From Bilabrum cf. latius (taxonomy: Eukaryota), in assembly GCA_965178125.1 (NCBI GenBank), contig OZ237735.1, positions 1,116,001 to 1,180,000 on the forward strand: a DNA stretch of 64,000 nucleotides. Reading direction: 5' to 3'. The position numbers were made by a program, and so were the translations under genes. This document shows positions 1 to 41,844 of the stretch, one piece after another; position 1 is the first letter of the stretch, and the number at the start of each line of letters is the position of its first letter. The notes beneath the pieces are model-generated. The model was not told the DNA's origin, did no database searches, and saw nothing but the letters and a program-made list of their open reading frames with translations.

Positions 1-3000
1 CACAGACCCAGACACATCTCGAGTCGCATCACCGGATGCTACCGTCACACTCCCAGATGCTGCTGACACCGCAGATCCAGATGTCACGCTCACAGCGCCC
101 GACACCGAGTTCGTCGCAAACCCAGATCCCACGCTCACGCTGCCCGATGAGCCAGACCCAGCGTTCCCGCTCGACACAGACACCACGCCAGTGAAGCCGC
201 CCGTGGACACACCACTCGACACATCCACGGCCCCAGACGAACCGTCCGATCCAGACCCAGCCGCGCTGCCCACGCTCACAGACCCGCTCGTCTGCCCGTC
301 CGCCGCGCCCCCAGACTGCACGCGCACCAGCCCGCCCGTGCCGCTCGTACCAGAGCTGGACCCGGCCAGCACGTACACGGACCCGCCAGCCTCAGACACG
401 CCGCTCGTCTGCGATGCCTGCACAGACACCGACCCACTAGCACCCAGCGTGGACTCCCCAGTGCGCAGCACAAGCCAGCCAGCGTCGCCCGACGATGCGT
501 CGCCAGTCTCAACCACCACGTTCCCGCTGCTGCCGCGCAGAGCTCCGCCGCTCGACACGCTCACAGACCCAGACGCATCGCCAGACGATGTGCCGGATCC
601 CACGCTCACAGACCCAGACACGTCAAGCAACGAGTCGCCCGATCCCACGCTCACAGACCCAGACGCCGCTGACACCGCAGATCCAGATGTCACGCTCACA
701 GACCCAGACACATCTCGAGTCGCATCGCCGGATGCTACCGTCACACTCCCAGATGCTGCCGACAACGCAGATCCAGATGTCACGCTCACAGCGCCCGACA
801 CCGAGTTCGTCGCAAACCCAGATCCCACGCTCACGCTGCCCGATGAGCCAGACCCAGCGTTCCCGCTCGACACAGACACCACGCCAGTGAAGCCGCCCGT
901 GGACACACCACTCGACACATCCACGGCCCCAGACGAACCGTCCGATCCAGACCCAGCCGCGCTGCCCACGCTCACAGACCCGCTCGTCTGCCCGTCCGCC
1001 GCGCCCCCAGACTGCACGCGCACCAGCCCGCCCGTGCCGCTCGTACCAGAGCTGGACCCGGCCAGCACGTACACGGACCCGCCAGCCTCAGACACGCCGC
1101 TCGTCTGCGATGCCTGCACAGACACCGACCCACTAGCACCCAGCGTGGACTCCCCAGTGCGCAGCACAAGCCAGCCAGCGTCGCCCGACGATGCGTCGCC
1201 AGTCTCAACCACCACGTTCCCGCTGCTGCCGCGCAGAGCTCCGCCGCTCGACACGCTCACAGACCCAGACGCATCGCCAGACGATGTGCCGGATCCCACG
1301 CTCACAGACCCAGACACGTCAAGCAACGAGTCGCCCGATCCCACGCTCACAGACCCAGATGCCGCTGATACCGCAGATCCAGATGTCACGCTCACAGCGC
1401 CCGACACCGAGTTCGTCGCAAACCCAGATCCCACGCTCACGCTGCCCGATGAGCCAGACCCAGCGTTCCCGCTCGACACAGACACCACGCCAGTGAAGCC
1501 GCCCGTGGACACACCACTCGACACATCCACGGCCCCAGACGAACCGTCCGATCCAGACCCAGCCGCGCTGCCCACGCTCACAGACCCGCTCGTCTGCCCG
1601 TCCGCCGCGCCCCCAGACTGCACGCGCACCAGCCCGCCCGTGCCGCTCGTACCAGAGCTGGACCCGGCCAGCACGTACACGGACCCGCCAGCCTCAGACA
1701 CGCCGCTCGTCTGCGATGCCTGCACAGACACCGACCCACTAGCACCCAGCGTGGACTCCCCAGTGCGCAGCACAAGCCAGCCAGCGTCGCCCGACGATGC
1801 GTCGCCAGTCTCAACCACCACGTTCCCGCTGCTGCCACGCAGAGCTCCGCCGCTCGACACGCTCACAGACCCAGACGCATCGCCAGACGATGTGCCGGAT
1901 CCCACGCTCACAGACCCAGACACGTCAAGCAACGAGTCGCCCGATCCCACGCTCACAGACCCAGACGCCGCTGATACCGCAGATCCAGATGTCACGCTCA
2001 CAGCGCCCGACACCGAGTTCGTCGCAAACCCAGATCCCACGCTCACGCTGCCCGATGAGCCAGACCCAGCGTTCCCGCTCGACACAGACACCACGCCAGT
2101 GAAGCCGCCCGTGGACACACCACTCGACACATCCACGGCCCCAGACGAACCGTCCGATCCAGACCCAGCCGCGCTGCCCACGCTCACAGACCCGCTCGTC
2201 TGCCCGTCCGCCGCGCCCCCAGACTGCACGCGCACCAGCCCGCCCGTGCCGCTCGTACCAGAGCTGGACCCGGCCAGCACGTACACGGACCCGCCAGCCT
2301 CAGACACGCCGCTCGTCTGCGATGCCTGCACAGACACTGACCCACTAGCACCCAGCGTGGACTCCCCAGTGCGCAGCACAAGCCAGCCAGCGTCGCCCGA
2401 CGATGCGTCGCCAGTCTCAACCACCACGTTCCCGCTGCTGCCGCGCAGAGCTCCGCCGCTCGACACGCTCACAGACCCAGACGCATCGCCAGACGATGTG
2501 CCGGATCCCACGCTCACAGACCCAGACACGTCAAGCAACGAGTCGCCCGATCCCACGCTCACAGACCCAGACGCCGCTGATACCGCAGATCCAGATGTCA
2601 CGCTCACAGCACCCGACACCGAGTTCGTCGCAAACCCAGATCCCACGCTTACGCTGCCCGATGAGCCAGACCCAGCGTTCCCGCTCGACACAGACACCAC
2701 GCCAGTGAAGCCGCCCGTGGACACACCACTCGACACATCCACGGCCCCAGACGAACCGTCCGATCCAGACCCAGCCGCGCTGCCCACGCTCACAGACCCG
2801 CTCGTCTGCCCGTCCGCCGCGCCCCCAGACTGCACGCGCACCAGCCCGCCCGTGCCGCTCGTACCAGAGCTGGACCCGGCCAGCACGTACACGGACCCGC
2901 CAGCCTCAGACACGCCGCTCGTCTGCGATGCCTGCACAGACACCGACCCACTAGCACCCAGCGTGGACTCCCCAGTGCGCAGCACAAGCCAGCCAGCGTC

Positions 3001-6000
3001 GCCCGACGATGCGTCGCCAGTCTCAACCACCACGTTCCCGCTGCTGCCGCGCAGAGCTCCGCCGCTCGACACGCTCACAGACCCAGACGCATCGCCAGAC
3101 GATGTGCCGGATCCCACGCTCACAGACCCAGACACGTCAAGCAACGAGTCGCCCGATCCCACGCTCACAGACCCAGACGCCGCTGACACCGCAGATCCAG
3201 ATGTCACGCTCACAGACCCAGACACATCTCGAGTCGCATCACCGGATGCTACCGTCACACTCCCAGATGCTGCCGACAACGCAGATCCAGATGTCACGCT
3301 CACAGCGCCCGACACCGAGTTCGTCGCAAACCCAGATCCCACGCTCACGCTGCCCGATGAGCCAGACCCAGCGTTCCCGCTCGACACAGACACCACGCCA
3401 GTGAAGCCGCCCGTGGACACACCACTCGACACATCCACGGCCCCAGACGAACCGTCCGATCCAGACCCAGCCGCGCTGCCCACGCTCACAGACCCGCTCG
3501 TCTGCCCGTCTGCCGCGCCCCCAGACTGCACGCGCACCAGCCCGCCCGTGCCGCTCGTACCAGAGCTGGACCCGGCCAGCACGTACACGGACCCGCCAGC
3601 CTCAGACACGCCGCTCGTCTGCGATGCCTGCACAGACACCGACCCACTAGCACCCAGCGTGGACTCCCCAGTGCGCAGCACAAGCCAGCCAGCGTCGCCC
3701 GACGATGCGTCGCCAGTCTCAACCACCACGTTCCCGCTGCTGCCGCGCAGAGCTCCGCCGCTCGACACGCTCACAGACCCAGACGCATCGCCAGACGATG
3801 TGCCGGATCCCACGCTCACAGACCCAGACACGTCAAGCAACGAGTCGCCCGATCCCACGCTCACAGACCCAGACGCCGCTGACACCGCAGATCCAGATGT
3901 CACGCTCACAGACCCAGACACATCTCGAGTCGCATCACCGGATGCTACCGTCACACTCCCAGATGCTGCCGACAACGCAGATCCAGATGTCACGCTCACA
4001 GCGCCCGACACCGAGTTCGTCGCAAACCCAGATCCCACGCTCACGCTGCCCGATGAGCCAGACCCAGCGTTCCCGCTCGACACAGACACCACGCCAGTGA
4101 AGCCGCCCGTGGACACACCACTCGACACATCCACGGCCCCAGACGAACCGTCCGATCCAGACCCAGCCGCGCTGCCCACGCTCACAGACCCGCTCGTCTG
4201 CCCGTCCGCCGCGCCCCCAGACTGCACGCGCACCAGCCCGCCCGTGCCGCTCGTACCAGAGCTGGACCCGGCCAGCACGTACACGGACCCGCCAGCCTCA
4301 GACACGCCGCTCGTCTGCGATGCCTGCACAGACACCGACCCACTAGCACCCAGCGTGGACTCCCCAGTGCGCAGCACAAGCCAGCCAGCGTCGCCCGACG
4401 ATGCGTCGCCAGTCTCAACCACCACGTTCCCGCTGCTGCCGCGCAGAGCTCCGCCGCTCGACACGCTCACAGACCCAGACGCATCGCCAGACGATGTGCC
4501 GGATCCCACGCTCACAGACCCAGACACGTCAAGCAACGAGTCGCCCGATCCCACGCTCACAGACCCAGACGCCGCTGACACCGCAGATCCAGATGTCACG
4601 CTCACAGACCCAGACACATCTCGAGTCGCATCGCCGGATGCTACCGTCACACTCCCAGATGCTGCCGACAACGCAGATCCAGATGTCACGCTCACAGCGC
4701 CCGACACCGAGTTCGTCGCAAACCCAGATCCCACGCTCACGCTGCCCGATGAGCCAGACCCAGCGTTCCCGCTCGACACAGACACCACGCCAGTGAAGCC
4801 GCCCGTGGACACACCACTCGACACATCCACGGCCCCAGACGAACCGTCCGATCCAGACCCAGCCGCGCTGCCCACGCTCACAGACCCGCTCGTCTGCCCG
4901 TCCGCCGCGCCCCCAGACTGCACGCGCACCAGCCCGCCCGTGCCGCTCGTACCAGAGCTGGACCCGGCCAGCACGTACACGGACCCGCCAGCCTCAGACA
5001 CGCCGCTCGTCTGCGATGCCTGCACAGACACCGACCCACTAGCACCCAGCGTGGACTCCCCAGTGCGCAGCACAAGCCAGCCAGCGTCGCCCGACGATGC
5101 GTCGCCAGTCTCAACCACCACGTTCCCGCTGCTGCCGCGCAGAGCTCCGCCGCTCGACACGCTCACAGACCCAGACGCATCGCCAGACGATGTGCCGGAT
5201 CCCACGCTCACAGACCCAGACACGTCAAGCAACGAGTCGCCCGATCCCACGCTCACAGACCCAGACGCCGCTGACACCGCAGATCCAGATGTCACGCTCA
5301 CAGACCCAGACACATCTCGAGTCGCATCACCGGATGCTACCGTCACACTCCCAGATGCTGCCGACAACGCAGATCCAGATGTCACGCTCACAGCGCCCGA
5401 CACCGAGTTCGTCGCAAACCCAGATCCCACGCTCACGCTGCCCGATGAGCCAGACCCAGCGTTCCCGCTCGACACAGACACCACGCCAGTGAAGCCGCCC
5501 GTGGACACACCACTCGACACATCCACGGCCCCAGACGAACCGTCCGATCCAGACCCAGCCGCGCTGCCCACGCTCACAGACCCGCTCGTCTGCCCGTCCG
5601 CCGCGCCCCCAGACTGCACGCGCACCAGCCCGCCCGTGCCGCTCGTACCAGAGCTGGACCCGGCCAGCACGTACACGGACCCGCCAGCCTCAGACACGCC
5701 GCTCGTCTGCGATGCCTGCACAGACACCGACCCACTAGCACCCAGCGTGGACTCCCCAGTGCGCAGCACAAGCCAGCCAGCGTCGCCCGACGATGCGTCG
5801 CCAGTCTCAACCACCACGTTCCCGCTGCTGCCGCGCAGAGCTCCGCCGCTCGACACGCTCACAGACCCAGACGCATCGCCAGACGATGTGCCGGATCCCA
5901 CGCTCACAGACCCAGACACGTCAAGCAACGAGTCGCCCGATCCCACGCTCACAGACCCAGACGCCGCTGACACCGCAGATCCAGATGTCACGCTCACAGC

Positions 6001-6426
6001 GCCCGACACCGAGTTCGTCGCAAACCCAGATCCCACGCTCACGCTGCCCGATGAGCCAGACCCAGCGTTCCCGCTCGACACAGACACCACGCCAGTGAAG
6101 CCGCCCGTGGACACACCACTCGACACATCCACGGCCCCAGACGAACCGTCCGATCCAGACCCAGCCGCGCTGCCCACGCTCACAGACCCGCTCGTCTGCC
6201 CGTCTGCCGCGCCCCCAGACTGCACGCGCACCAGCCCGCCCGTGCCGCTCGTACCAGAGCTGGACCCGGCCAGCACGTACACGGACCCGCCAGCCTCAGA
6301 CACGCCGCTCGTCTGCGATGCCTGCACAGACACAGACCCACTAGCACCCAGCGTGGACTCCCCAGTGCGCAGCACAAGCCAGCCAGCGTCGCCCGACGAT
6401 GCGTCGCCAGTCTCAACCACCACGTT
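1..6426. repeat. Near-perfect coding tandem array, units of 696 bp (232 aa) or 606 bp (202 aa)
   Basis: Anchor GTGAAGCCGCCCGTGGACAC at 191, 887, 1493, 2099, 2705, 3401, 4097, 4793, 5489, 6095 (spacings 696, 606, 606, 606, 696, 696, 696, 696, 606). Units differ by a 90-bp block (two 45-bp sub-repeats) and a few scattered substitutions. Confidence 0.98.
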
Positions 6427-9400
6427 ACCGCTATCACCCAAGTGTGCTGTGTTTGAATGTATTCGAATGGATCCCGAGGATGCGCCTGATGCAGATCCAG
6501 ATTCAATCAGAATGCTTCCGGAGTCTTGCAACTGTGTTGATCCCGTTCCAATTTGTACATCGCCAGAGTTTCCATCTAATGCCGTGCCAGTTCTGAGCTA
6601 AACGGATCCAGAGTTACCGGAATGTGCGGCACCAGAGTCGAATAACATGTTACCTGAGTTTGCTCCAGACGCAGTTCCTGACGATATCTGCACTTGCCCA
6701 GAATTTGCTAGAATCGTGTCACCCGATGAAAAAGTTAGTGCACCGGACTGGCCAGCAGTTGCTAATCCGGAGGCAATTTCGATGTTTCCTGAAACACCGG
6801 ACCCTGCCGATCCAGATTGCACTCGGACAGTGCCAGAGAACCCCTCGGTTGAACTACCACTGAATATGTCCATGCTACCCGATGATCCATCCGTTCCAGT
6901 ACCATCGGCAGTGAAAATGCGTACTCTACCAGATGTACCAGCTGCCGCTGATTGGCCACTACCAATTTCGATTTCACCTCCATCGTTTGAAGCCGTTTGA
7001 GACTCACCAGCGGAAACGTAAACAGATCCCCCCGCGTGGCTTTGAGCTGAACCGGCTGAGATGCTCACAGACCCGGAATCTCCTCGATTCGCATTGCCAG
7101 TCGAAAGAATCAGCCATCCACTGCTTCCTGAAGTAGCTTCGCCGGTTTCAAGTAGGATTTGTCCCGACTAGGCAGATGATGAAGCACCGGTATTCAACTA
7201 AATGTCACCAGAATCACCTTGATCGGATGAACCGGTCTGAATCGTCATGGTGCCGGATGGCCCTCCGAGTGAGTTGCCCGAAACCAATGAAACTGATCCG
7301 GAGTCGCCCTGGCCTGCGGTTCCTGTCGCAAAGGTTAGTCGTCCAGAGTCCATGCCAACTCCATTGGCGTCAGCTGTTTTGACAGACACGCTTCCTGACG
7401 ATGATACACTACCGCCGCCAGATGTGATGCTGACGAGTCCACCAGTGGAGGCAGCATCCGTGGTGCTACCAGCAGCAATATACACATCGCCTCCATTGCC
7501 GGAATCAGACAGTCCACTTAGCACGGAGATGGATCCAGCGCCACCACTAGATGCTGTGCCAACAGCAAGATAAATGTCCCCGGAGTCCCCACATGTGGAT
7601 GTCCCAGTCGTTAGGCTGATGACCCCGCTGTCCCCGCTGTTAGCATCACCAGTGAAAAGGCTAATTCTGCCGGTGTCGTCCCTGAAAGGCGCATCAGGTG
7701 TAGAGATCGTAATTTCTCCGGACGATGACGACAAACCTTGACCGCTTGAAAGCTCTAGCGGTCCACCGTGCTACCCTGGCCGACGTACCTGACCTGCGGA
7801 CAAAACAAGACGCCCGCCACTGCCAACATCCCCGGAGCCAACAACGATCGAGATAGAACCAGAAGTACCGGAGTCTGCAAAACCAGTGTTCAATACAAGC
7901 GTTCCAGTATTGCCACTCTAAGTAGCTCCGGACTCGACGCGAACATCGCCGCTGTTTCCATCTTCTGCTGTCCCACTGACTATACTCATCGCCCCAGAGT
8001 CGCCACTGTCAGCTGAGCCGCTCCTGATCTGGACACCACCAGATGATCCCTGCGTGCTTGAGCCAGAAATAAGCGAGATTGCTCCCGATCCACCAGCTGT
8101 AGTGTGACCAGTAGACAACAAGATAGTGCCACTTGTTCCACTGGTCGATTGGGGTGTTCTAATCTGGATAGACCCCGAGTTCGCACCTTCCCCACTGGCC
8201 AACTCGACAGATCCACCGGTAGAAGATCCATCAGATGTGCTACCAGCAGAAATAGTAACAAGACCTCCGACGCCAGAATCAGCGGAGCCGACTGTCATCG
8301 AGATCGACCCAGCATTTCCAGACGAGGCTTGCCCGGTAAAAAGAAGGATATCACCACCTTCACCGCCGCCCGTTGTGCCAGTAGAGAGCAATATCGTCCC
8401 AGAAAGCCCACGTGCCACTGAATTAGCAGTCCGAAGCGAGATTCCGCCTGAATCACCACTGATTGCCTGACCGGTCGAAACAAGTACCCTACCACCGGTT
8501 CCGCCAGCAGTGTCTAGGGTCTGTCCGGCGCCAATTGTAACATCTCCACCGTTGCCACGCCCGGCAGAGCCCACTGACATCAAGATGCTTCCTCCAGACC
8601 CAAGAGAAGATGTGCCCGTCGTGATGGACACATCGCCCGTGTCATCTTGGGCCGCCGTACCAGTGCGAACCGTGAACGAACCGCTCTGACCGCTGAGGAG
8701 AGCATTGTGAGTCCGCAAAACAATGTTTCCAGTAGTGAGCCCTGAGCCAGACTCGACAAAAAAATCCCCACCCACGCCCGCAAACCCATCTGTTGACTGT
8801 CCGGCAGACAGGTATATACTGCCGCCTTTGCCATCAGTTGTAGATCCAGCAGTAACACTGATAGAGCCGGAGCTGTCTCCAACAGCATCCCCAGTTCGAA
8901 TGTTAATTGGGCCGGACTCTCCGCTGGATGAGGTACCAGTTTGAAGAGTCACGCTGCCGCTCTCACCAGCTAGCCCAGCATTGGCAGTTCTAATCAGAAC
9001 ATCTCCAGACGTCGAAACTTCTCCAAGGCCTGAGGAAATCGACACAAAACCTCCTGTGCGTCCTTCACCGTTCCCGGCTCGAATGATAATGTCGCCACCT
9101 TCACCATCATTCAAACCATTCCCAGCAACTGCGAGGATGTCCCCACCGGGTTCATCTGCACCCTTAGTGTCACCAGCACGAAGCAGGATGTCACCGCCAG
9201 GTCCAGAACTCGCAGTTCCGACGCTTATTATGATGTCACCACTGGCATCAACAGAACCTTCACCAGTCGAGATGATGACCTCTCCGGCTTGTCCACTCGA
9301 AGCCGTACCGGTTTGCAGAATAATGTCTCCAGACCTCCCACGCCGACCAGCATTGGCTGTTCTGATCAAAATAGATCCGCTGGTGCTGTCCTCAGATCGA

Positions 9401-12400
9401 CCGCTCAAGATTGTGACCCATCCTCCTGTGTTGAACGACGTCGCACCACCGATGATGTCCACAGCTCCACCAACGACAGCATCCTCACCAGTACTGTCAC
9501 CTCCGCGCACCACGACTCGACCACCTGATGCCTCGCCAGCGGCATCTCCTGCCCTCACAAGCACGCCGCCACCGTCGAGAGTACCATCACCCTAGCCAAC
9601 TGTTATGCTGATATCACCCCCCGGCCCACTGCGACCATCACCCGAGCGGATCGCAATTCCTCCGCCGCGCGCTTGGTTGATGTTCGAAGCAGAACCGGAC
9701 TTGATGAGAACCTCTCCACCATTCGACATGGGAGATGATGTATTTCCAGCAACTAGGCTGATGCCACCGCCAGCCCCAAAGTCAGAGGTTCCAGCTTCAG
9801 CAATTATGCTACCAGAACTTCCAAGCGTTGTGTTTCCGGATAACAACCTTATGTCCCCACTACCACCACTGTTCGACGACCCAGTTTGGATCTCGATGCT
9901 TCCGCTTGGGCCACCTTCAGATCCCGAGTCACCGGTTCTAAGGAACGCGTCGCCGCTGCCTGCAGCTGTAAGGCCGTCACCTGACTGCAAGAAAAGATCA
10001 CCTCCCCTTGATCCGTGACTGGAACCACCTTTGATCATAACAATTCCACCAGTCCCACCGTTCTAGCTCGTGCCTGCACCACCCTAGATATCAATGGCTC
10101 CACCGGTTCCGTCACGAGACGTGGAGTTGCCAGCACGGGCAACGAAGTCGCCCGCTTGGCTGCCCTCATGACTTCCAATTCGAATCTCGACGGATCCCGA
10201 CTTGTGAGAGGATGGAAGTTGTGCGCCAGGACCAGACGAGGAGCCAGTCTAGAGTATTAAACGACCCGCTGCACCATCACTAGCATTGCCGGTTCCGAAG
10301 CTCACATTTCCGGTCCTTGCAACTCCGGCGCCTGATTCGATAGAGACATTTCCTGATTGCCCGAGGAAACCTACAGTGTTGTCCCCACTGCGAATCTCTA
10401 CTGCGCCTCCTTCCTACTGTGATGCAGAGCTAGATCCACCAACGATGATTACCCGGCCACCATCGAGGCCAAGCTCATGGGAAACGTTGCCACCAGCCAG
10501 GACTACGTCACCCCCGCCACCAAGCATGCCATCAGCTGCGCCACCACCAATCACAACGCTGCCGCTCTAGACAGGTCCGGACCCAGTGCCACCATTCAGC
10601 TGCACACCTCCTCCAGCGCCACCAGTTGAGTCTCCACCTCGGAAGTCCACACTTCCACCGTCCGCACTTGCGACGTCAGTTGCGCTACCGGCAGAGGCAA
10701 CGATACTGCCGCCCTTTCCGCCAATCCCAAAGCTTGAGCCCGACTGGATCACCACATCCCCAGCAATTCCGTGTGATGTGTTTCCAGACCCGATTTCAAG
10801 TGCGCCTGACGATGCCCCTGTAGCATTTGAAGTCCCCGTACGGATAGATACCATGCCGGAGGCACCGTGCAGGGCAAAGCCACTCTCAATGGATACATTA
10901 CCAGATGCAGACCCGCGACGATCTCCAATCGCTCTACTCGCGCCACTATCAGCTCGCCCATTTGCAGAGCGTACAACCACGTCTCCAGAAACACCAAATG
11001 CTGCACCGCCCGACTACAACAGAAGTTCACCACCGGTCGAAGATCCTTCGCCTGCCTTAACAAGTACGCTGCCACCGACGCCCCCTGCTGCATTCGAAGC
11101 CGGCACATTCCCTGCAATAATATTGACAGAGCCTCCCTGACCGATAGCTGACTTGGTCGTCGAGCTGCCAGCAGCAATAGAGACGTCCGAGCCGTTCACG
11201 GCATCTGACGAGCCAACCTCGATCTCAATCGAGCCTGCGCGGGAAGACTAAACTCCGACCGCCGGTCCCGTCACAAAGCGAATAGACCCAGACTGCGAGC
11301 CATTACCACCAGTCGTACCCTGATCGACCGTGCCGGACAATCCAGTCGCAATGATTACATCCCCACTCACGCCTCCTGAGCTTGCAGCAGCCCCTGACTC
11401 CAGCCTAACACCACCACTACTGCCCTTGAGACCACTTCCGTCTGCAGTTCGAATCAATACACGGCCAGAACCGTATGCGTCACTGCCAGCGCCGGATTCG
11501 AGGGTAACTTGCCCACCCTGCCCATTCGAGGCGAGGGATGACCCACCACGAATGTCAACAGACCCAGCGACGCCGCCTCCAAGAGTAGTTGAGCCTGCCT
11601 CAATCGTTGTGTTGGCTCCATTCATCCCTGCAGAGCGACCAGCTGCAACTCGCACGTTACCGGCTCCTGCAGAGCCGAGACCATCACCGGAGCGAACATG
11701 CAACGAACCGGAGCGCACAGAAGTACTTCCTTGCTGCCGTCCTGACGACACGGTACCAGTGGCGATCTTCACGCTTCCCGAGCCGTGTGCTAGCACGCTT
11801 CCAACTACAGGCTCCTGTGACGCGGATTGAATCATAACCTCACCAGATGCTGCCTTGTCAGATGCACCTGACTCGATCGTAACAGCCCCACCCTGGCTGG
11901 ACTTCGAGCTGCCACCATTAATGCTCACAGACCCTCCTTCACTGCCCACGGCGCCAAGCCCTTCGCCACCGCGTATGTTAACACGGCCACCGCTAGATCC
12001 CGATCCAGACGCTGCACCTCCTTCAATTGAAGCGTCTCCAGCCGCAGTAGACGGAGCAGACGTGGTACCACCTAGCAGGGAAGCCGACCCACCGGGCCCC
12101 ATCAAGCTGGATCCGCCGGCCACCGTGGTATCTCCGCCTCTTGCCGGTCCCGATCCGCCCGATAGCTCCAGTGCACCTCCTGATGAGGTCGGTTCAGATT
12201 CCAATCCATCCCCACCTGATATAGAGACTGATCCGCCCAGTCCCTGGGACCCTCCTGCACCAGATACAGCACCACCTTTGATGGAAACGCTACCAGAGCC
12301 AGCCAGTCCTCCAGCTCCGGGGGCAATCTCAATATCACCAGATCGGCCCGCTTGGCCTGCATCGCCGGTGTGAATGTGCACGCTTCCAACCGTTGCAGAG

Positions 12401-15400: not shown

Positions 15401-18400
15401 GTAGACCCGGCTTCGATCTAGATGCTGCCAGCTCGACCGGCCATAGAACGGCCGGTGCTCAACCGGAGAATGCCAGAGTCTCCACCGAGACTCCCCGTTG
15501 CATCCCCGGACCTCAGCGTGACATTGCCCGAGGATGAACCATCCGTAGAATTTGCGAAGCCGCCCAAGCCGCCACGGGCAGTCTACAAGTCCAGATTACC
15601 GGATCGCTTGCCAGCGGGATCGTTGGGACCAATAGTAAGCCTCTTGTGCTGAGCCTGCATGGCAGCCAGCAAATCGATCGCGATACGAATCTTGTTGACC
15701 TCATGAAAGTCCTCCAAATCGAACCCTTTATCCTCGAATTGCATTCTGTCAGTGATTGTGATATACTCTGGGAACTGCTTGTGCACTTCCTGTGCGATCA
15801 CGCCGCGTACCCGGACGTCGTCAATGCCTCGCACCTTCCGCCAGTCCTCAGTGTATTGGTAGCTGGTGACGCGGAGTCTCTGCATACGTTGAAGCAAATC
15901 CTCTTCGTCAACATTCTCAATGTTCCGCTTGATGCGTCGATCGGATGGTGAGATCACCTCAACGATGTCGGCAGGTACGTGCGAGAAGATCTTTTGCCCA
16001 CGAACGCGCATTACGACACCGCTTCTTGTGGTTGCATCGCCGTGCGCAATCTGAAATTCCTCCCCATCGCCACCAACAGTGATTCGCATGCCACCGCCGG
16101 CTTCAATGTTAAAGTCAGAACCCTTCTCGGACTGCATTTCGACATCTCCATGGCTTCCAACGGCGAACCGACGGTTGCCATCATTGTCTACCACCTCGAA
16201 GGTCCCGTCGCTCCCATGCGACGTGCCTGTTGGGTCTGCAGCGCCCTTCCCAAGCTGTACACGTACAGAGCCTCCATCGCCAGCTGCTGGGAGGCTTTGA
16301 TCCTGGTTGTTGGCCTCGCCAGTCGGTGCCTGAGCGCCACTCACGGAAATGCTTGCGCCTGTAGCCCGCCCAGCGTCGCCAGCTGAGACCTGCGTGTCTC
16401 CAGCCGTGATATGGACACTGCCAGCTCGAGCCTTGCCGACAGCTTCACCGGTTTGAATACGAACATCGCCTGAAGCAGCAGCCCGAGAAGCGCCAACACC
16501 AGCAGAGATTCCCGGAGAGGTCTTGATGACGACGGTTCCAGTTGAGCCGCGGCCAGTCGAGGATGGTCCTGAGGTCAGCTCAACATCGCCGCCATCCTGG
16601 ACACCCTCGCCACCGACAATCCGTACTGAACCGCCAGCCGATCGGGAACCATGGCCACTACCAGCTTCAATTGAAACATCGCCGCCAACACCATCCGGAG
16701 TCAACTCGCCAGAGGAAGAACCACCACGGATCGCAACACGTCCTGCATCGCCAGCGGAGAGACCAGCAGCCACGGATACATCGCCGGCACGCCCAGTTGG
16801 GGCATCACCTGACGCGATGGAAACATCACCAGAAACCTGCTTCGAGTCAGGAGTAGCACCCTGAGGCATTGCATCTACATTTCCAGACCCAATGCGCACT
16901 TCGCCAGAAGATCCGACTCGCTGGGCAGCACCAACGCCAGTCAAGACTGTTACTTGACCACTGGTGCCACTTACGCTCAGTCCTGACTCGATTGATACCT
17001 TTCCGCCAGATCCTGATCCACTTGCGGTTCCACCCCGGATCTCAACACCACTGGCATCTCCACTTGCGGATCTCCTGCTGCCACCAGCGATCTTGATGGA
17101 CCCAGCTTTGCCCTCATTGGATTCACCTCCTTCAATGGTTATGTCACCAGCTGCAGCTCCGATTCCGGTGCCCTTGGCAGAGCCTGTGCGCAGCGTGATG
17201 TCACCAGACTTGCCGCCTCCGTGCATCCCGGCTGCTGCAGCGGCATCTCCGAACGATCCATCCGCGGAGACGATATCAATGCTTCCCGATTCACCTCCGT
17301 CCGATCCTCCGGAAGCCAGCAAAACGCTACCGCCAGATGATCCAGCTGCCTTGCGAGCCGCACCAGCTTCGACGACAACGTCACCACCGCTGGATCGATC
17401 CGAGGTCGTTTCGCCGGCTGCGATACGAACTTGACCGGGAGAAGCACCGCGGTGCGCTGCGCCGGCTTTGACTACAACATCTCCAGCGATCTGCTTTTCG
17501 CCAACTGCAGCTCCAGTGCCGATTTGCACGTTCCCTGAAGATCCTCCTGACGCGCTGCTCGAGTCCCCAGGCGCACTGCCGAGCTGCACTGTGCCACTCT
17601 TCGCACCAGGCCCAGACACTCCGCTCGTTACTTCAACTGCACCACCAGGTCCCGCAGCAGCTGCACCGCCTTGAACAAGAACACTTCCGCCCATGTCAGT
17701 AGACATGCGCTGTCCGGCTGCACTGCCACCAACAACGGTCACATTTCCACCACTGCCACCGGACTACACGGGTCCACGAGCCGCAGTACCTGACCCAGCC
17801 TCAATGCGGACCGAGCCGCCGCTAGCACCTGCAGAAGCAACATTGCCTGCCTAAACACGAACCGCGGAAGACTCAGAATCGAGCTTAGACGTGGCGCTCG
17901 AACTCCCAGCCATAATCTCGACGGGCCCAGCAGCACCGCCCGCAGAGTCTCCGCTCGAAATGGTGACTGCACCACTTCGGCCCGTAGAGCTGGCACCCGT
18001 CACCACTGTCACGTTCCCGCTCACCGTTCCATTGGATGAACCGATACTCACAGACCCTGACGAGCCTGCCTTGCCTCTGTGACCGCCGGACTAGATTTGA
18101 ATGGAACCGCCCACAGCCACCCCAGCGGTGCCATCCGCCTAGCGGCGTGAAGAGCGAGCTTGCCCTGGCTGAATAATTACATCGCCAGCACCACCGTCAG
18201 CCTCTCCAGTCGTGACACGCACATCCCCACTGGATTGACCAACGCCACCAGCGGGGCTTTGTGAGTCGCCAGAACCGATGATTACATCACCTGACGCGCC
18301 TTTGGTAGCAGCGCCTGATGTCAACGAGACTCGACCTGTCTTCTCAGCCTCGGCGGACTACACGTTTACATCACCAGAGTTGTACACCCAGTTGCCAGAC

Positions 18401-21400
18401 TCCACAACAACGTTGCCGCCAGGACTGGCACGGCTGCCGTCCTCCCGCATAATGTCCTGCGAGCCGTCGAACACTGAGCGAACGCGAGCAGAATTTGGGC
18501 CCCCAGCTCCATCCACATCGAAGCCTCCTGCCCGCAGCTGAATGTTGCCTCCGGTCTTGCCGCGAGACTTGCCTGTCTCAATGATGATGGGGCCAGCAGC
18601 ACCACCCACTCCGATGGCATCGCCAGTCCTGATGTTCATTGCGCCGGACCCACGGCCGCCACTGCTGCGCCCAGACGATACGAACACCTCCCCAGAAACT
18701 GAGTCAGGGTGCGTGCTCTCCGACTCGGCAGTCTCTATCCAAATCGCGCCAGACGTGCCACCGTTCGGACCACTCTTGCCAGTCCGAATGTGGATCATTC
18801 CACCGCTGCCCCTGCCCTGAGCAGAGCCTGCTACCATTGACACGCTGCCGCCCATGTCGCGGATGGATTGCCCCATTGATTCACCTGCCTCGATGCGAAC
18901 AGCGCCGCCATCGCCGCCGTCTTGCTGGCTGTTCGAGGTGCCTGAGCCACCACGGAGTAGCAAGTCACCGCCAACTCCCTGGTCACTCGCGGATTCACCA
19001 GCTGCAACAGTCACATCGGCGCCGTCACCGCGCTGGCTAACACCAGCAGCCACAGAAACAGCGCCGGCTTCACCGCGCTCGCTGTCCCCAGTCACCAGAC
19101 CAACTGCGCCAGACTTGCCCATGGAGGCACGGCCAGTTCTGATGATGATTTCCCCAGAGGGTCCCATGGCAACGGAACCACCCCTTGGAGACAATCTATT
19201 GTCACCGTCAGAGCCCTGAGCATCCGCAGTGGTGATCTCGATACCACCGGTTGGCCCACGATGTGCTTGACCCGTTGTCAGCCTCAAACGACCTCCACGA
19301 GCCCCCACATCGGCAGTAGAGCCGGCGGAGAGGACAACGTCCGCACCCTCGCCCTGCATGGATTCTCCTGCACCGATGGACACTCCGCCGGCGGAACCAT
19401 CCAAGGCATCACCTGTTCGGATCTCGACGCCTCCTGCAGAACCACTCTCCGAGTCACCCGTACGGATAAAGACTCCGCCTGATGAGCCACGAGTTCCGCT
19501 AGTCGGTGTCACCATTGAAACAGCACCAGACGACGAGTACTCAGATGGACCCGAGCTGAGGACGACATCACCACCACTTCCACCTTTTGCCGCTCCGCCC
19601 TTGAGCACGACACGACCAGCAAATGCATGCGTATTGAGAGAGCTAGACTCGCCACCGGAGATGCGCATGTCACCTCCCTTACCGCCCCGGATCTTGTCGG
19701 CACTCGACCCAGCGCCTGCCTTGATGCTCACCACACCGCCAGTACCATCCACGGCAGTGGACTCACCAGCTTCAATTGTCACAGCTGCGCCAACTTGCGA
19801 CGCACCTGATCCGGCAAGCAGGGACACAGCACCGCCAGCTCCAGCGCCGGCTCGGGCACCTGCAACTGTCGGCTTTCCTCCTGAACCGCCCTGGAACACA
19901 AACGAACCTGCGTCGCCATCTGTTGCATCTCCAGTAGTCAAGGAAAGCGAGCCGGAAGTTCCCTTGGTGCCGGCATTGGCAGTCCGAATGGAGACTGAAC
20001 CAGAGCTTGTCTCGGCAGACTCGCCCGTGCTGAGCTCGATAGCACCGCCAGTTGCCTTGGCAGCGCGACCGCCGGAAATCTCGACGGCACCACCAACAGC
20101 ACCAGCGCGGATTGCAGACGGAGACTTTCCGGCCGCAGAACCACCGAGTATGCGAACGCGTCCGCCCTTGCCTTCGGCTTCGTTCTGTCCGGCACCTGCA
20201 TTCACGAGGACATCGCCACCGCGCCCCTTTACATTCGAAGAAGCACCGCTTCCAAGGAACACATCGCCGGCTTTCTTGCCAGTGCTGCTACCAACGGCAA
20301 GCATGATGCTGCCTGCATTGCTCCCATCGGAGTCCTGGGCTGTTGCACCGGCACTGCTGGGACCAGCGGCGTGCCCAGTCGACAAGAGAATGCCGCCGGT
20401 GCTCGTGTCCAGGCCAGATGACGCGCCGGTTTCGATGCGAACATCACCACTGTCGCCCAGTCTTCCTGCGTCTACCGTGTCGATCATGACGGAGCCCGAG
20501 TCGCCCTCACGAGCTCCACCAGCGGCAATCTGCACGTCACCACCAGCCGCCGATCGCCCTGAAGCTCTCGCGCCGCCTGCAGCAATTGTGACATTGGCGC
20601 CTCGCGTCCCGCTGCCACCTCCAGAAACTCCCGCAGAGATATCAATACCTCCCGCTGAACCGCCTTGCGAGGCACCTGTGGAGACCTCGACAGATCCTGA
20701 AGTGCCGCTTCCGACGCCAGCTCCAGTGCGGAGTTGGAGGTCGCCGCTGCCACCGCCACGAGTGCTGCCCTCAGCACTCTCGACTATCACCTGGCCACTC
20801 GGCTGCGTGCCCTCACCAGCTCCAGAGCGAACCTCGACCGTACCACCACGGGCCGCGGAAGAGGACCCGCCATTTATGACGACGTCACCGCCCACGTCAG
20901 ACAGTGGGTTCCCGCCGAAGCCACGGCCAGCACTAATGCTCACTGCCCCACCGTTCCCGCCATCAATCGGAAACGTTGACAAGCCATCGCCGGCGCCGAT
21001 GATTACGGAGCCGCCAGTGCCCTGCTCAGACGTGGTATCGCCGGCGTCGACCCAGACGTTCCCGCCATCTCCTCGCACGCTGCCATCTCCAACTTTGAGC
21101 ATGATGTCTCCGCCGGGCCCATCTGCAGACGCACCGGTAACGAACTCAGCGGCTCCTGATGCTCCAGAGCTGGAATCGCCGGTTTGGAGTCGGATACCTC
21201 CGCTGTCGCCCTGTGAACCGCCGTCGGCGGTACGAACGAGAACGGGGCCGCTGCCACCAGCAGCTGATGCGCCCGACTGCACCTCGACAGATCCACCACG
21301 GGCACCGCCAGGGTCATTTGACTCTCCTCCAGCAATGCGAACGCTACCACCGACACCAACGGCGCCACTGCCGACCTGAACGTTGATGTCCCCGGCTGCG

Positions 21401-24400
21401 CCAAGGGCTGCGTTGCCAGTGCTGATGCTCACCGAGCCGGAATCGCCGAAAGCAGACTTTCCTGTCTGCAATACGGCAAAGCCTGAAGTTCCTGCGCGAC
21501 CACTGTCTGCAGTCACTAGTTCCAGAGCTCCTGAATCCTTCTCAGTGGAAGCTCCGGTTCGAACGGTCACGCGACCACCAGTGCCAGCAAATGCTGCTCC
21601 GCCATTCAATTCGACTGCGCCGCCGAAGTCAGTCTCGTTGGAACCACGAGCTTCTCCACCACTGATTGACACTGCACCCCCACGACCGCCGTTCAATGAG
21701 GATGGATTGGAGCCTTCACCACCACGGACAACGACCTTGCCGCCCTCAGAGCTCTCGGATGAGGTTCGGCCGGCTGCCACCAACACGTTGCCACCATCGC
21801 CGAGGTCGCCATCGCCTACAGCGATAACAACGTCACCGCCAGCTCCATTGGTTGCCGGGCCGGACTGCAAGGCGACTGTGCCTGAAGGCCCACCAGTAGA
21901 CACTCCAGTTCCGATCGCAACATCGCCAGAAACACCCGAAGTGCCGCTGTTTGATGTCCTAATGACAACTGCTCCAGAGTCCCGCGTGGCACTGTCGCCG
22001 CTGCGAATCTCAACGCGACCACCAGGGCCAGCCTCGGCAGGCCCACCCTCAAGCACAACAGCGCCACCTGCATCGCCTGGCGACATTCCCATAGCTTGAC
22101 CACCGCCGATGACCACGTTGCCGCCATCTCCACCATTCACGTCATCGGTGCTGCTGCCCCGCCCACCAAACAAGCCGATTGAGCCTCCAGCGGCACCCAC
22201 GGCAGTGGATTCGCCACCTGCCACGTTGACTGAAGCTCCAGAACCGACCGCGCTGCTGCCGCCAACAACGTCAACATCGCCAGCCGTCCCGGCCGCTGCA
22301 TTCCCTGAGCCAAGGCTCACCCTGCCGGTGTCGCTCGTGTCACTCGTGCCTGTCTGGATAATGACCTGACCAGATTCGCCCAGAGGCCCAGCGTCCGCCG
22401 TGCGGATACGCACATCTCCGGACGTGGTGCGATCGCTGGAGCCGCTGACGACATCGACATGCCCACCAGTCTGGGTGCCAGAGCTGCCCCCGGACAGCTC
22501 AAGCAGGCCACCAGGTCCGCTCTCGCTGCGACCGCCACTCATGCTCAACCCAGCGGCCGTTCCGTTGGGCACATTCGAGGCCCCAGCCTCAATCAGAATG
22601 CTGCCAGCATCCGCGCTGGCACTCTGATTGCCTGCACCACCTCGAATGATGACTCTTCCGCCACCTGCAGTGGCATCAGTCGTGTTTCCGCCGGTCAGCG
22701 TAAGATCGGACCCAAAGCCAGAGCCAGAGATCCCCGCAGACACCGAAATAGCGCCCGCCGAGCCAGCTGGCGCATCGCCAGAGTGCACAAGGACGTCCCC
22801 ACTGCGCGAATCATCACCAGCATTCGCGGAAGCGCGGCCAGATCCGACTGAGATATCACCAGTGGACCCACCGCGAGCCCCTGCCACATCGGAGGTTCCT
22901 AGCCCGTCCGCTGACCCGATGGTGATAGGGCCAGATGTGCCGTTGATTGCAGATCCAGACTCCAGCTAAAGCGATCCGCCGTGTGGTGCACGTGCAGTTG
23001 CCTGTCCTCCAGCAGCGAGCGCGGCCTCTTCGGCGATGTCATCAGCACTGGCTGACGCGTTGGCACCCATTGGAGCTGCACCACCACCAGCAATCACAAC
23101 GCCAGCACCGCGAGCAGATGCCTTGCTACTGCCAGCGGCAATGTTGATGCCACCTGCCTTTGCAGCAGGAGACCCAAATGATGCGCCGCTGCCAATTCCT
23201 GCGTCGCCAGAGCGAATCTCGAGTGAGCCGGTTCCTGAGGTGCTCGAGCTACCGCTCTGTACGGTGGTGGAGCCGGTGGGGCCCGACTATGACGAAGCCG
23301 ATCCCAGAATTGCCCTACCACCACTGCTGCCAGACCCACCAGCTCCTGCGAGCACAGTCAGGTCACCGCCGGAACCATTTGAAGCGCTGCCTGATTCGAT
23401 GCGGATAGCACCACCGCTTGCGCTCGTGTTCGCGGCCCCGGCACCGCCGGAGATGGACACTGCTCCAGCTGCTCCACCGTCACGAGATGAGGCTCCTCCT
23501 TGGATGGAGACGTTGCCAGCCAGACCTTCACTGCCCTCAATGGCACTGTCACCACGCCCGGCGGATCCAGCTGAGATCTCGACAGATCCTGCGCCGGCAC
23601 CGTCGGAGCCATCACCACCCGCAATTGACACCCCACCGGCCCGTCCCCTGGAGCCAGTGGCAGCGCCTGCAGCGACGGATACGTCACCGCCAGTGGCAAA
23701 AGAGGCACGCTCAATCTCGCGCTCGTCTCCGAGCAGCGCACGCTGCCTTTCTGCTTCTTGTGCGGCGGCCGTGGCGTTCACGGCCCCCGTGCGTAGCTGC
23801 AGCCCGCCGGAGCTGCCTACGGTCTTGGTCTGCCCATCCCCACCGATCGAGCCGGCGGTTTCAAGAGTGATGGATCCAGACCCGCCCCGGCTAGTTGAGC
23901 TGCCAGAGCGGATGGTGACCTCGCCGCCAGTCGCATCGGAGGTCAACGGGGCTGCAAGCTCACCGGCTTCCACAGCCACCGAGCCTGCTGATTGAGACCC
24001 TGAGCCAGCAGAGAGGCTCACGGAGCCTGCAGATCCCTTTGGCGCAGCGCCCGTGCGAATCGTCACGTCCCCAGTGCTGGAGCTGTCAGCAGCACCTCCT
24101 TGGGCACCTCCCGTGGAGATTTCAACCTGACCAGAAGCAGAGCCTGCGGCATTGGCAGCCGTGTTGCTGCCAATGCGGACTGCCCCAGAGATGGAGCCAG
24201 CTGCAGACGTGGCACCAGTGCGGATATCCACGTCTCCGCCAGCGCGTCCGGCAGCTGAGGAGCCAGCGACAATGCTGACCGAGCCGCCATCACCGTCCGC
24301 AAGAGCACGCCCAGCACGCAGATGGAGCGCGCCACCGGCGCCTGCGCCTCCGAGGCGCTCCTCCCCGCTGCCATCGCCTGCCTGGACCGTCGCAGACCCA

Positions 24401-25261
24401 CCAGCACCGCCGCTGGGGCTTGCACCCGAGCCGGCTGCCAGTGTGGCAGAAGCGCCTGCGGTGGAGGCGCGAGAGTCGTTCCCTGCAGCGAAATCAACAT
24501 CACCTGCGGAACGCAAGGTTGTTCCTTCGCCCGTCACTTCGAGAGCGAACGTGCCGGCGGGCTGCGCCTCGCCCGTGCCGTTCGCTGGGGCCGGGGCGCC
24601 GCCGCCGCCACGGGTGCGGTTTCCGAGGAGCCGAAGCTCACCGCCACCAAAGGCCGGGTCGCCCTCAATGCGAACGTTTCCGAGCACGCGATTCTCGCGC
24701 ACAAACGTTGGTGGGCAAGGGGGGCCGAAAATGGTACCCCTGCAGTCGCCATCCATGGCTTCTGGGATCGTGACGCAGCGGGACTGGCTGCCGCACCAGG
24801 CGCACTCGTCGTGCGCAGCGCACGGCTCGCATCCATCCAGCTAGGCACAAGGAGGTGCCACTGGGCAACCAGCGTCCTCGCCGTCACTTGAAGCGTAGAG
24901 CCACTCCTCGCAAGCACCGCCACCGGCGGGGCCGTCTGGGCTGCCAGCCTCGCACTGCAGCGAGTCCAGGCAGTAGCCGCAGCCCTCTGTTGCGACACAA
25001 GGAGAGCATGATGTTGTGATTTCGGTCCTGCGATTTTAACTTGCGGTGGCAATGGGATATACTAGTGTGATCCTGCTGACGGTGACTGAACGGCCGAACC
25101 GCCGAAAGACAGATAAATGACGATTAACCTCACCAAAAATCTTGATCTCCGTCAGTATTGAATGAAGAACATGTGTTTGAGTCCCCTGAAGCTGGGAGAA
25201 CGCCAGCAGCGGCCAAAATAGCCGCGGCGATAGCCATTCTTGCCGCCAGCGGGGCACTCAT
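1..25261 (-). CDS. Giant secreted Gly/Ser-rich beta-repeat (fibre-like) protein with N-terminal PSI domains and an internal peptidase S74 (ICA) domain; >8,385 aa, 3' end beyond window; exons 25261-25134 and 25027-<1
   Basis: ATG at 25261 gives signal-peptide-like MSAPLAARMAIAAAILAAAGVLPASG. The GTGAG...CGCAG intron 25133-25028 joins in frame. All minus-strand ORF fragments ending at 6598, 7198, 7918, 9592, 10567, 11014, 11248, 13561, 14167, 14383, 15583, 17851, 18139, 18358 and 23287 share one frame and end at TAG (27 in-frame TAGs by manual count, no TAA/TGA). The frame is open to position 1. Confidence 0.9.
15640..15945 (-). other. Peptidase S74 / intramolecular chaperone auto-processing (ICA) domain, MYRF/phage-tailspike type, inside the giant protein
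   Basis: PSDRRIKRNIENVD...LQRMQRLRVTSYQY...RGVIAQEVHKQFPEYI...FHEVNKIRIAIDLLAAMQA matches the S74 signature SDxRxK...GxIAQE. Catalytic Ser at 15943-15945, Lys at 15928-15930. Confidence 0.9.
24710..25010 (-). other. Two PSI (plexin-semaphorin-integrin) Cys-rich domains at the N-terminus of the giant protein
   Basis: SCSPCVATEGCGYCLDSLQC...C and GCEPCAAHDECAWCGSQSRC...C fit the CxxC...CxW/YC PSI pattern; a TAG at 24841 lies between them. Confidence 0.8.
25028..25133 (-). other. Spliceosomal intron (106 bp)
   Basis: Donor G|GTGAGG, acceptor CGCAG|; removal links the signal-peptide exon in frame (TG+G = Trp). Confidence 0.85.
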
Positions 25262-25657
25262 GGATCGTCGTTCGATAGAAATACCCTGCAGCACTTCTTG
25301 TCTTCTTGTTCAGCTTTGGTTGCGCAACTCTGTGAAAATTGATGCACACCTGTTTCACGATGCCTTGATGTCGGCTTGAGATCCTCTGATGGACCTCGAC
25401 AGTGGCGTTTTTGGGGTTCAAGCGACAGATTTGCTCGGACGCGGTCGCAACAAGCGGTGCGTTGGATTTTTCTTGCGGTTACAACCACTTTCAAGAAGAA
25501 GATTAAAACCACCTCAAACTGCAGAAAATAAAATTGAACGCTTATAGTACGCAGCCAAGAAAAGTTTTTGTATTCAGTTTTGGTGTTTCGATGAGTCAGG
25601 TTGCTCCCAATTTGAAGTCCTAGTCTTGAGTAGCAAGTTGTTGCTATTTCGAGCCCA

Positions 25658-38488: not shown

Positions 38489-38931
38489 GCCAGTCGGAGA
38501 GATAGCCTTCAAAAAATTACTACCAACGTCAGCCTTCGTCTATGAAGACAGATTAGTGAACGCGGATTAGCACCGGGAGTCGAGCACGTCAGCTCTTGAA
38601 CGGAACCAGTCAGTGACAGCGCGGCGCCCTATGAGCAAATTCCACCCACATTGTCTGTGTGTGATTCTGCCATGGTGGTTCTCTCTGCTGCACAAAATGG
38701 ACGCTCTAAATACGGGTAGTGGGCCAAGGTACGGACATGTTACACAAGGTCAACTTCTTCAAGATCCGACTGCGAGCATTGGCAACCGGAGCCTAGCACG
38801 GCTACGAGACAGCTATAGATCTACATGTCGTGCCACCCAGATACTGTTAACACTTGTACGAGACTACGCGCATGCGAATGGATTTGATAGCATGCTCGCT
38901 GCCCAGCACCTCCTTGCTCCTCCCACTGGCA

Positions 38932-41535: not shown

Positions 41536-41844
41536 TGTGATACGGGTGGATCTCTGTGGGTGGGAGCATGTGCGTGCGGCTGATTGGATCGGCACACCGG
41601 AGCCGGCAGCTTAGTGTCGCCAAGTTGCTGGGCAGCTATGCCACATGTTCGGTGATTGAGATAAACTTTGTGCCAATAGATGCGTAGTCTGCCAGATGCT
41701 GTATACCAAGTATATCCGGATTCCGGATCAGTTTCTGAGCCTTGGCTCCTGGATGGACCCACGCAACAATGTACAAGACAACAGCTAGCTTGAGGAACTT
41801 CTGCCGACAAGGACACGGATATCGGCAGCGGCAGACTTGGCTGC

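Follow-up and report, generated by a model that had tools for sequence, protein, structure and literature searches.

A giant gene with in-frame TAG codons from Bilabrum cf. latius encodes a putative fibre protein with an internal ICA domain

Results

A two-exon gene occupies the left part of the window

We analyzed a 64,000-nt stretch of DNA from Bilabrum cf. latius (assembly GCA_965178125.1, contig OZ237735.1, positions 1,116,001 to 1,180,000 of the forward strand), hereafter referred to as the window. Its left part is taken up by a single minus-strand gene for a giant, repetitive protein that is interrupted by an ICA (Peptidase_S74) domain and that we consider a likely precursor of a secreted fibre. 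The features of this gene are listed below. Residue numbers follow the frame numbering of the long minus-strand frame, in which Ser3031 corresponds to Ser3071 of the spliced protein.

25262..25385, minus strand: 5' untranslated region of at least 124 nt; a spliced contig of run X1 extends to 25385, and the neighbouring frame ends at 25661 (TGA).
25134..25261, minus strand: exon 1, an ATG plus 42 codons and 2 nt, with a signal-peptide-like start as read from the sequence.
25028..25133, minus strand: predicted spliceosomal intron of 106 nt, GT..AG, skipped in contigs of runs X1 and X3.
1..25027, minus strand: exon 2, with 27 TAG codons as sense, open to the left window end; the 3' end of the gene lies beyond the window.
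24904..25008, minus strand: PSI module 1, frame residues ~10-44 (PF01437; BLASTP to the PSI of the neighbouring gene, E 2e-6).
24715..24867, minus strand: PSI module 2, frame residues ~57-107 (best PF01437 stretch residues 63-94; BLASTP to the neighbour's PSI, E 4e-7).
16207..24507, minus strand: shaft 1, frame residues 177-2943, ~170 strand-turn units of 15-17 residues (repeat motif).
15946..16206, minus strand: conserved neck before the ICA, frame residues 2944-3030, covered by homologues.
15631..15945, minus strand: ICA / Peptidase_S74 domain, frame residues 3031-3135 (Pfam, phmmer, Foldseek).
15943-15945 and 15928-15930, minus strand: Ser codon and Lys codon, respectively, at the start of the ICA.
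6430..15603, minus strand: shaft 2, frame residues 3145-6202, diverged units (repeat motif; AlphaFold2 (AF2) model of residues 5788-6111).
1..6429, minus strand: macro-repeat array, cut by the window end (repeat analysis).

The long frame is read through TAG

In a stop-to-stop scan, the minus strand is free of TAA and TGA from 1 to 25035, giving a frame of 8,345 codons that contains 27 in-frame TAG codons and runs off the left window end. The six frames of the window hold 169-419 TGA and 41-106 TAA codons per ~21,333 codons, and these counts exclude a chance origin of such a frame. Six long frames, all on the minus strand, contain 27, 44, 41, 15, 6 and 4 in-frame TAG codons (137 in total), and TGA is the terminator of all five that are complete. 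A ubiquitin hydrolase (UCH) domain encoded in the window reads through TAG codons up to its conserved His box, with the TAG positions falling into variable columns of the domain. Because the long frames carry TAG and end in TGA, and because the UCH domain continues across TAG, TAG is a sense codon in the source organism. TAA is found 0 times in ~19,000 in-frame codons, although CAA is used; the pattern in the window looks like a reassignment of TAG only.

Two protein fragments from other assemblies (P0002 and P0154, 97% identical) have Gln at one of the TAG sites and both end just before the window's next TAG, and a 55% identical relative (locus L001) has Gln opposite 3 of 20 TAG sites. Gln is thus the likely meaning of TAG, as judged from these alignments. 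No tRNA genes were found within the 64-kb window. Standard gene calling breaks the gene at its 27 TAG codons: with translation table 11, the region reads as 7 minus-strand open reading frames (ORFs) of at least 300 amino acids and a 2,199-amino acid antisense ORF at 2..6601 on the plus strand. This antisense ORF, which lies over the macro-repeats and would encode 22% Pro, 18% Asp and 16% Thr, is a trap for gene callers. It is open because it has its wobble position in common with the sense frame.

The gene has one intron, a signal-peptide-like exon and an N-terminal PSI pair

The locus forms one gene with two exons and a single intron. Exon 1 starts with an ATG at 25261 and measures 128 nt, and exon 2 begins at 25027 in phase with the long frame, so that the product comprises 8,385 residues inside the window. 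Contigs from X1 and X3, which are runs of one study, join 25026 to 25133 and skip the 106 nt, which have CT..AC ends on the plus strand; a 48-kb source-like DNA contig of X4 keeps the intron. X1 contigs of at least 99% identity cover 30 of 30 bins of 6700-25700. The exon 1 product has one Arg and an Ala/Ile/Leu-rich core followed by PASG, and was judged signal-peptide-like by eye.

We scanned the first 110 frame residues alone and found PF01437 at 31.2 bits in 2 stretches, above the cut-off of 23.1; the score within a 3,300-amino acid piece is 20.2 bits only. Fifteen of the 16 Cys residues are located within the first 107 frame residues. The protein contains 23% Gly, 19.5% Ser, 11% Ala, 10% Val and 6.7% Thr, and a Pfam search with the whole frame returns PSI and S74 only.

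Much of this had been proposed in an earlier note made from the letters of the window: a frame hidden by a code change, which standard annotation would fragment or replace by an antisense Pro-rich ORF, a single intron followed by >25 kb of open frame, an N-terminal signal peptide, two PSI domains and a protein essentially free of Cys beyond its N-terminus. Re-translation with TAG as sense, the table 11 reading, the spliced contigs, the PF01437 stretches and the Cys distribution bear these proposals out, and exon 1 agrees with the signal peptide as far as inspection by eye can tell.

An ICA domain with the self-cleavage motif lies in the middle of the protein

PF13884 matches residues 3031-3091 with 47.4 bits (E 2.4e-12, cut-off 22). 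The ICA of MYRF (PDB 7dc3) is the sole PDB sequence match (phmmer, E 2.3e-10), with the segment SP-SDRRIK aligned to the MYRF motif. The Lys is found five residues after the Ser at the start of the domain, and a Ser/Lys pair is catalytic in ICA self-cleavage. A cut is hence predicted from the motif between Pro3030 and Ser3031. We next modeled the domain with AF2 from an 87-row alignment of neck and ICA. The mean pLDDT is 81.4, and in P0001 numbering the 10-residue blocks of residues 71-250 exceed 90, with 77 for block 61-70. Foldseek places this model on 7dc3 with an E value of 7.6e-9, a root-mean-square deviation of 1.8 Å over 115 columns and a target TM score of 0.71-0.75; its other matches are the endosialidase ICA 3gw6, the T5 tail fibre 4uw8 and 3gud. 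Matches to tail-fibre families of PHROG extend across the ICA and the neck (phrog_1980, E 1.6e-18). By its sequence and by its predicted fold, this is a genuine ICA/S74 domain.

The internal position of the ICA, with repeats directly after it, could also mean that the domain trimerises without cutting, so that the ICA would be an in-line knot within an unbroken trimeric fibre with >8,000 residues in each chain. The two or three in-line ICA modules of some relatives would fit such an arrangement, as would the Ala found in place of Ser in 13 of 81 rows of the family alignment. However, the window's ICA has Ser and Lys at the spacing of the MYRF motif, the two residues represent the majority state of the family (62 of 81 ungapped rows have the Ser, and 70 of 82 the Lys), and the ICA domains that have been studied reportedly self-cleave. 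We therefore regard an uncut fibre as unlikely and favor a self-cleaving ICA.

The shaft repeats are compatible with a triple-stranded beta-helix

Repeat units start at frame residue 177. A strict motif has 442 anchors in the frame, most often spaced by 15 (202 times), 17 (66 times) or 16 residues (42 times), and the consensus of the 202 exact 15-mers is S1 G2 x V4 x V6 x S/T8 G9 x A/S11 x x G14 x (SGxVxVxSGxAxxGx). Hundreds of diverged units conserve the alternating Val/Ile/Leu residues at unit positions 4 and 6 as well as the Gly residues at positions 2 and 9. The shaft matches no Pfam family and no PHROG family.

The last 2,143 residues in the window form the macro-repeat array, which contains at least nine complete macro-repeats of 202 or 232 residues that are protein-identical within each length class. 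The array is of low complexity and has a GC content of 67%. Its copies differ at 10 DNA sites, 10 of 10 at codon position 3 and all synonymous. We considered this clustering as a proof of the coding strand and rejected it, as the antisense frame uses the same wobble position.

We modeled residues 5788-6111 of the shaft as a single chain with AF2, on an alignment built from 99 windows of this protein. The best model (pLDDT 81.1, pTM 0.67) is an extended chain without any secondary structure assigned by DSSP. In a structural scan of this model against 48,161 chains, 5 rows reached Z of at least 2, with the phage tail-fibre hyaluronidases 2c3f (Z 4.0) and 6wv2 (Z 3.8) at the top. Weak rows in BFVD correspond to uncultured Caudovirales proteins (E 2.8e-5) and to a YadA-like head protein (E 0.93).

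A trimer was predicted with three copies of residues 1345-1675 of the homologue P0003, a region to which the window's shaft block is 31% identical (E 4e-10). The predicted interfaces have ipSAE values of 0.89, 0.88 and 0.89, compared with 0.00 for the best of 3 controls. The model contains ~2,800 inter-chain contacts with a partner pLDDT of 86-87, and at least 88% of contacts are shared between runs. The contacts of lowest error connect residue i to residues i+15..18 of the next chain, the offset expected if each unit supplies one strand of an interleaved triple-stranded beta-helix. In calibration, 21 of 30 proteins whose solved structure is a pair of one chain reached the mark applied to such complex predictions, as against 0 of 23 whose solved structure is a single chain. 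The trimer prediction supports a triple beta-helix at the level of the family.

Two other folds have to be weighed against this one. The repeats could form an extended, heavily glycosylated mucin-like core without a regular fold, comparable with TLP-2, TLP-3 and TLP-4, linear-peptide glycofibrils described in a recent preprint (bioRxiv 10.1101/2025.09.30.679562). The high Gly, Ser and Thr content, the low complexity of the macro-repeat part and two of the five AF2 shaft models, with pLDDT 51 and 38, would be in line with such a core. On the other hand, the pattern of Val/Ile/Leu (4, 6) and Gly (2, 9), kept across units and relatives, fits a buried beta core, and the trimer model of the homologue is a confident one; we regard a mucin-like core as unlikely. 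Gly-rich strand-turn repeats also form single-chain solenoids. The shaft could accordingly be a single-chain beta-solenoid or beta-roll adhesin of the filamentous haemagglutinin or YadA-head type, with an ICA that serves for processing only, and a YadA-like head protein is indeed among the weak BFVD rows. Yet our single-chain model lacks DSSP secondary structure, the trimer of the homologue has its many contacts between chains and with a stagger of one unit, and an ICA domain is present. We consider a single-chain solenoid improbable and prefer the triple-stranded beta-helix.

The earlier note had described ~15-residue strand-turn units interrupted by an S74 domain, and both the repeat array and the interruption are confirmed here; its figure of ~550 strands is slightly high, as we estimate a total of ~509 units. 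Its proposal of a trimeric beta-fibre is supported by the predicted shaft trimer of the homologue, whereas the window's own monomer model is only faintly tail-fibre-like.

The protein belongs to a family with a repeats-ICA-repeats plan

We searched 1.84 billion representatives and obtained 445 homologues at E of at most 0.001, 121 at 1e-10 and 36 at 1e-30, most of them fragments. Named homologues come from Phytophthora infestans (PITG_01491), P. capsici, Aphanomyces astaci and A. euteiches, and further ones from the TARA and GOS marine samples. The oomycete proteins are 35-44% identical across the neck, the ICA and the flanking repeats, and the Val/Ile/Leu and Gly pattern of the shaft units is kept across relatives at 31-35% identity. 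A strict cleavage-type motif is present in 49 of the 150 matches listed. Among these listed matches, repeats lie beyond the ICA in 16 of 17 motif-bearing proteins with at least 60 residues there, and upstream of it in 14 of 14 with at least 160 residues there. The relatives thus have a common repeats-ICA-repeats plan, and some contain two or three ICA modules; in P0003, Pfam finds three S74 stretches.

In metagenomes, we found 36 loci related to the window protein, and none in a scan with P0001 alone. L002 has 5,113 codons in the standard code, is open at both ends and carries two ICA motifs. L003 (3,087 codons) has its ICA at 2517, and its upstream exons code for a signal-peptide-like start with W as its last residue, plus two PSI modules, an arrangement also seen in the window gene. 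L010 (2,804 codons) carries ICA motifs at 182 and 2095, and its frame terminates naturally within repeats. L001, which is 72% identical to the window in the ICA part, and L004 need TAG as sense to stay open (10 and 25 TAG codons, respectively). This suggests paralogues in the TAG-recoded lineage, which would then have several such genes. The frames of L001 and L004 span their whole 6.6-kb and 11.3-kb contigs, and the contig names have a common prefix. A subfamily formed by L010 (9506-17917) and loci L007-L014, at 41% identity, has ~40 Cys in 2,804 residues spread through the shaft, where the window shaft has one. The first ICA of L010 is located only 182 residues from the frame start.

Database entries for the family are fragments of 220-1,770 residues only, and its size and plan have thus been invisible so far. 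No annotated relatives of 4,589-14,604 amino acids were present among 2,797 candidates, which is weak evidence. The ESM Atlas clusters obtained for P0003 are unnamed, are assigned to Oomycota, Uroviricota and Chlorophyta with scores of 0.96-0.97, and serve as leads only. We found no paper on the family in the full text of 8.1 million PMC papers and 0.36 million preprints, a search that left aside supplementary files, which might hold oomycete expression or proteome data.

The neighbouring genes are cellular

The remaining long frames of the window (25661-63999) are likewise on the minus strand, very long (4,302, 2,958 and 2,145 codons beside the giant gene) and separated by short gaps. The neighbours encode two ubiquitin hydrolases and a 4,302-codon fn3/PSI/RING protein, and represent ordinary eukaryotic genes. 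The latter (25661-38566, minus strand) combines fn3 domains and several PSI modules with a hydrophobic stretch and a RING-H2 finger at its C-terminus, an unusual plan resembling a giant receptor-like E3 ligase. Two minus-strand frames, 40611..42308 and 41848..44187, overlap in different phases, pointing to a single gene with an intron or a frame shift. A ubiquitin hydrolase frame (55126..63999, minus strand) ends with >50 Pro-Ala dipeptides (~55126-55500).

It is very improbable that the giant gene is an endogenised fibre gene of a giant virus, polinton-like virus or phage without use to the cell: S74 domains are typical of viral fibres, the weak BFVD rows include uncultured Caudovirales proteins and one look-alike ESM Atlas cluster is half viral, but the gene contains a spliceosomal intron, which is spliced out in contigs, starts with a signal-peptide-like exon, encodes PSI modules similar to those of its cellular neighbour, uses TAG as sense as the neighbouring genes do, lies among cellular genes (UCH, RING, fn3), and has relatives with the same exon plan as well as homologues in oomycete genomes.

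Discussion

Taking these findings together, we think it likely, on balance, that the gene product is a secreted precursor from which a homotrimeric fibre with a triple-stranded beta-helical fold is made, with an ICA domain that sets the register of the chains and cuts itself. The signal peptide would direct the chain into the secretory pathway, and the two PSI modules would form a disulfide-bonded N-terminal cap. The internal ICA would trimerise and keep the three chains in register while the 15-residue units interleave, each unit providing one strand on one face of a triangular prism and ~0.48 nm of length, the strand spacing of a beta-sheet. The Ser/Lys pair of the ICA would then cut the chain before Ser3031. 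Because the ICA is located mid-protein, the product is probably two fibres, namely an N-terminal one of ~3,030 residues and a C-terminal one led by the ICA, with >5,300 residues. At 0.48 nm per strand, these would measure ~80 nm before the ICA and at least 160 nm after it inside the window, and a few hundred nm in total appears most likely from this model. The abundant Ser/Thr residues are probably glycosylated, and the product may thus be a glycofibril of the cell surface or medium.

Several points weigh against this reading. At the level of the gene, the X1 data are labelled 'RNA? (probably DNA)', such labels are guesses and none of the listed runs is recorded as RNA, which leaves the spliced contigs as the evidence for transcription; the signal peptide was called by eye only, and the C-terminus lies beyond the window. 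With regard to cleavage, Ala stands in for Ser in 13 of 81 aligned family modules, so that some modules may not cut. A phage ICA is a C-terminal domain that folds what precedes it and is then released. In the window, >5,300 residues are found downstream of the sole ICA seen, and in L010 the 590 residues that follow its last ICA finish in repeats, without a terminal ICA. With so long a shaft following the last ICA, folding of the downstream part lies outside the textbook mechanism; either the trimerised ICA nucleates this shaft too, or a further ICA is located beyond the window.

Our structural models call for similar caution. The five AF2 shaft models scatter widely, with pLDDT values of 81, 72, 71, 51 and 38, and the shaft model finds no match in the PDB with Foldseek. 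The top VIA-align Z of 4.0 is below the tool's informative level, and the resemblance to chains of triple-stranded beta-helices is faint, to be taken as a hint only. The trimer prediction was made on a database homologue rather than on the window's protein, and its calibration used two copies, not three. Of the eukaryote calibration proteins without an older solved relative, only 1 of 7 reached the mark, and the pass of the P0003 trimer may stem from solved triple beta-helices that the model has memorised.

A wider proposal, which we put forward as tentative and rather doubtful, is that the protein is a self-cleaving polyprotein of fibres, in which internal ICAs would zip up three chains on both sides and then cut them into pieces of defined length. 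On this view, proteins of this kind would account for the protein cores of fine extracellular fibrils in stramenopile-like protists, such as surface hairs and adhesive or coat fibrils, and of some natural-water glycofibrils.

We compared the window protein to known systems that contain an ICA. The closest published case, by analogy, is TLP-12, a glycofibril from pond water whose cryo-electron microscopy structure is a trimer of 12-residue repeats with O-glycans (bioRxiv 10.1101/2025.09.30.679562). The preprint assigns it to proteins of Amoebophrya that are ~20,000 residues long and carry the ICA at the C-terminus, and lists ~150 candidates in 6 alveolate species or strains (bioRxiv 10.1101/2025.09.30.679562). 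Both the window protein and TLP-12 are giant eukaryotic proteins made up almost entirely of short Gly/Ser-rich repeats and equipped with an ICA. In TLP-12, the three chains are interwoven as a triple beta-sheet core, with the ICA proposed to drive folding, which can be set beside the predicted trimer of the homologue in the window family. There are clear differences, however. The TLP-12 unit has 12 residues (GSxxSx7) and that of the window 15 (SGxVxVxSGxAxxGx), which places the window protein outside the TLP-12 repeat definition. The ICA is C-terminal in TLP-12, whereas the one ICA seen in the window protein is internal (residue 3031 of >8,345), with up to three copies in relatives. The window protein has N-terminal PSI modules, and the named members of its family are oomycetes, along with at least one TAG-recoded lineage, whereas the TLP-12 candidates are alveolate. 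Finally, the glycans of TLP-12 were seen by cryo-electron microscopy, whereas the window family is known from sequence and predicted models.

Phage tail fibres and tailspikes (3gw6, 4uw8, 3gud) resemble the window protein in the ICA fold, in the PHROG matches and in having, upstream of the ICA, a shaft that is trimeric and beta-helical in phages and probably so in the window protein. In phages, the ICA comes last in the chain and is discarded, as reported for the T5 tail fibre, whereas in the window protein it is followed by >5,300 shaft residues. In addition, the shaft repeats of the window correspond to no PHROG family, and the window protein starts with a putative eukaryotic signal peptide, carries PSI modules and is encoded by a gene with an intron. 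MYRF provides the closest solved relative by sequence and by fold (7dc3). As in the window protein, the ICA sits inside a eukaryotic polypeptide, and its cut, predicted in our case, parts two functional halves. MYRF is reported to be a transcription factor that is membrane-bound and has a DNA-binding domain, whereas Pfam finds no DNA-binding domain in the window frame, and its ICA is flanked by fibre repeats. The oomycete hypothetical proteins annotated as 'Peptidase S74 domain-containing' are true homologues over the neck, the ICA and the flanking repeats; they use the standard code and are annotated as pieces of 390-860 residues.

To our knowledge, the ICA as a fibre-folding device outside viruses is mainly known from MYRF and, since 2025, from the alveolate TLP-12 candidates. 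The family of the window protein would represent a second, different family of giant eukaryotic fibres with the fibre-folding device of phages, widespread in oomycetes and marine plankton. Unlike the terminal ICA of phage fibres and of TLP-12, its ICA is internal and, in some relatives, repeated, which raises the question of whether an ICA can nucleate a triple beta-helix downstream of itself and meter the length of a fibre by cutting.

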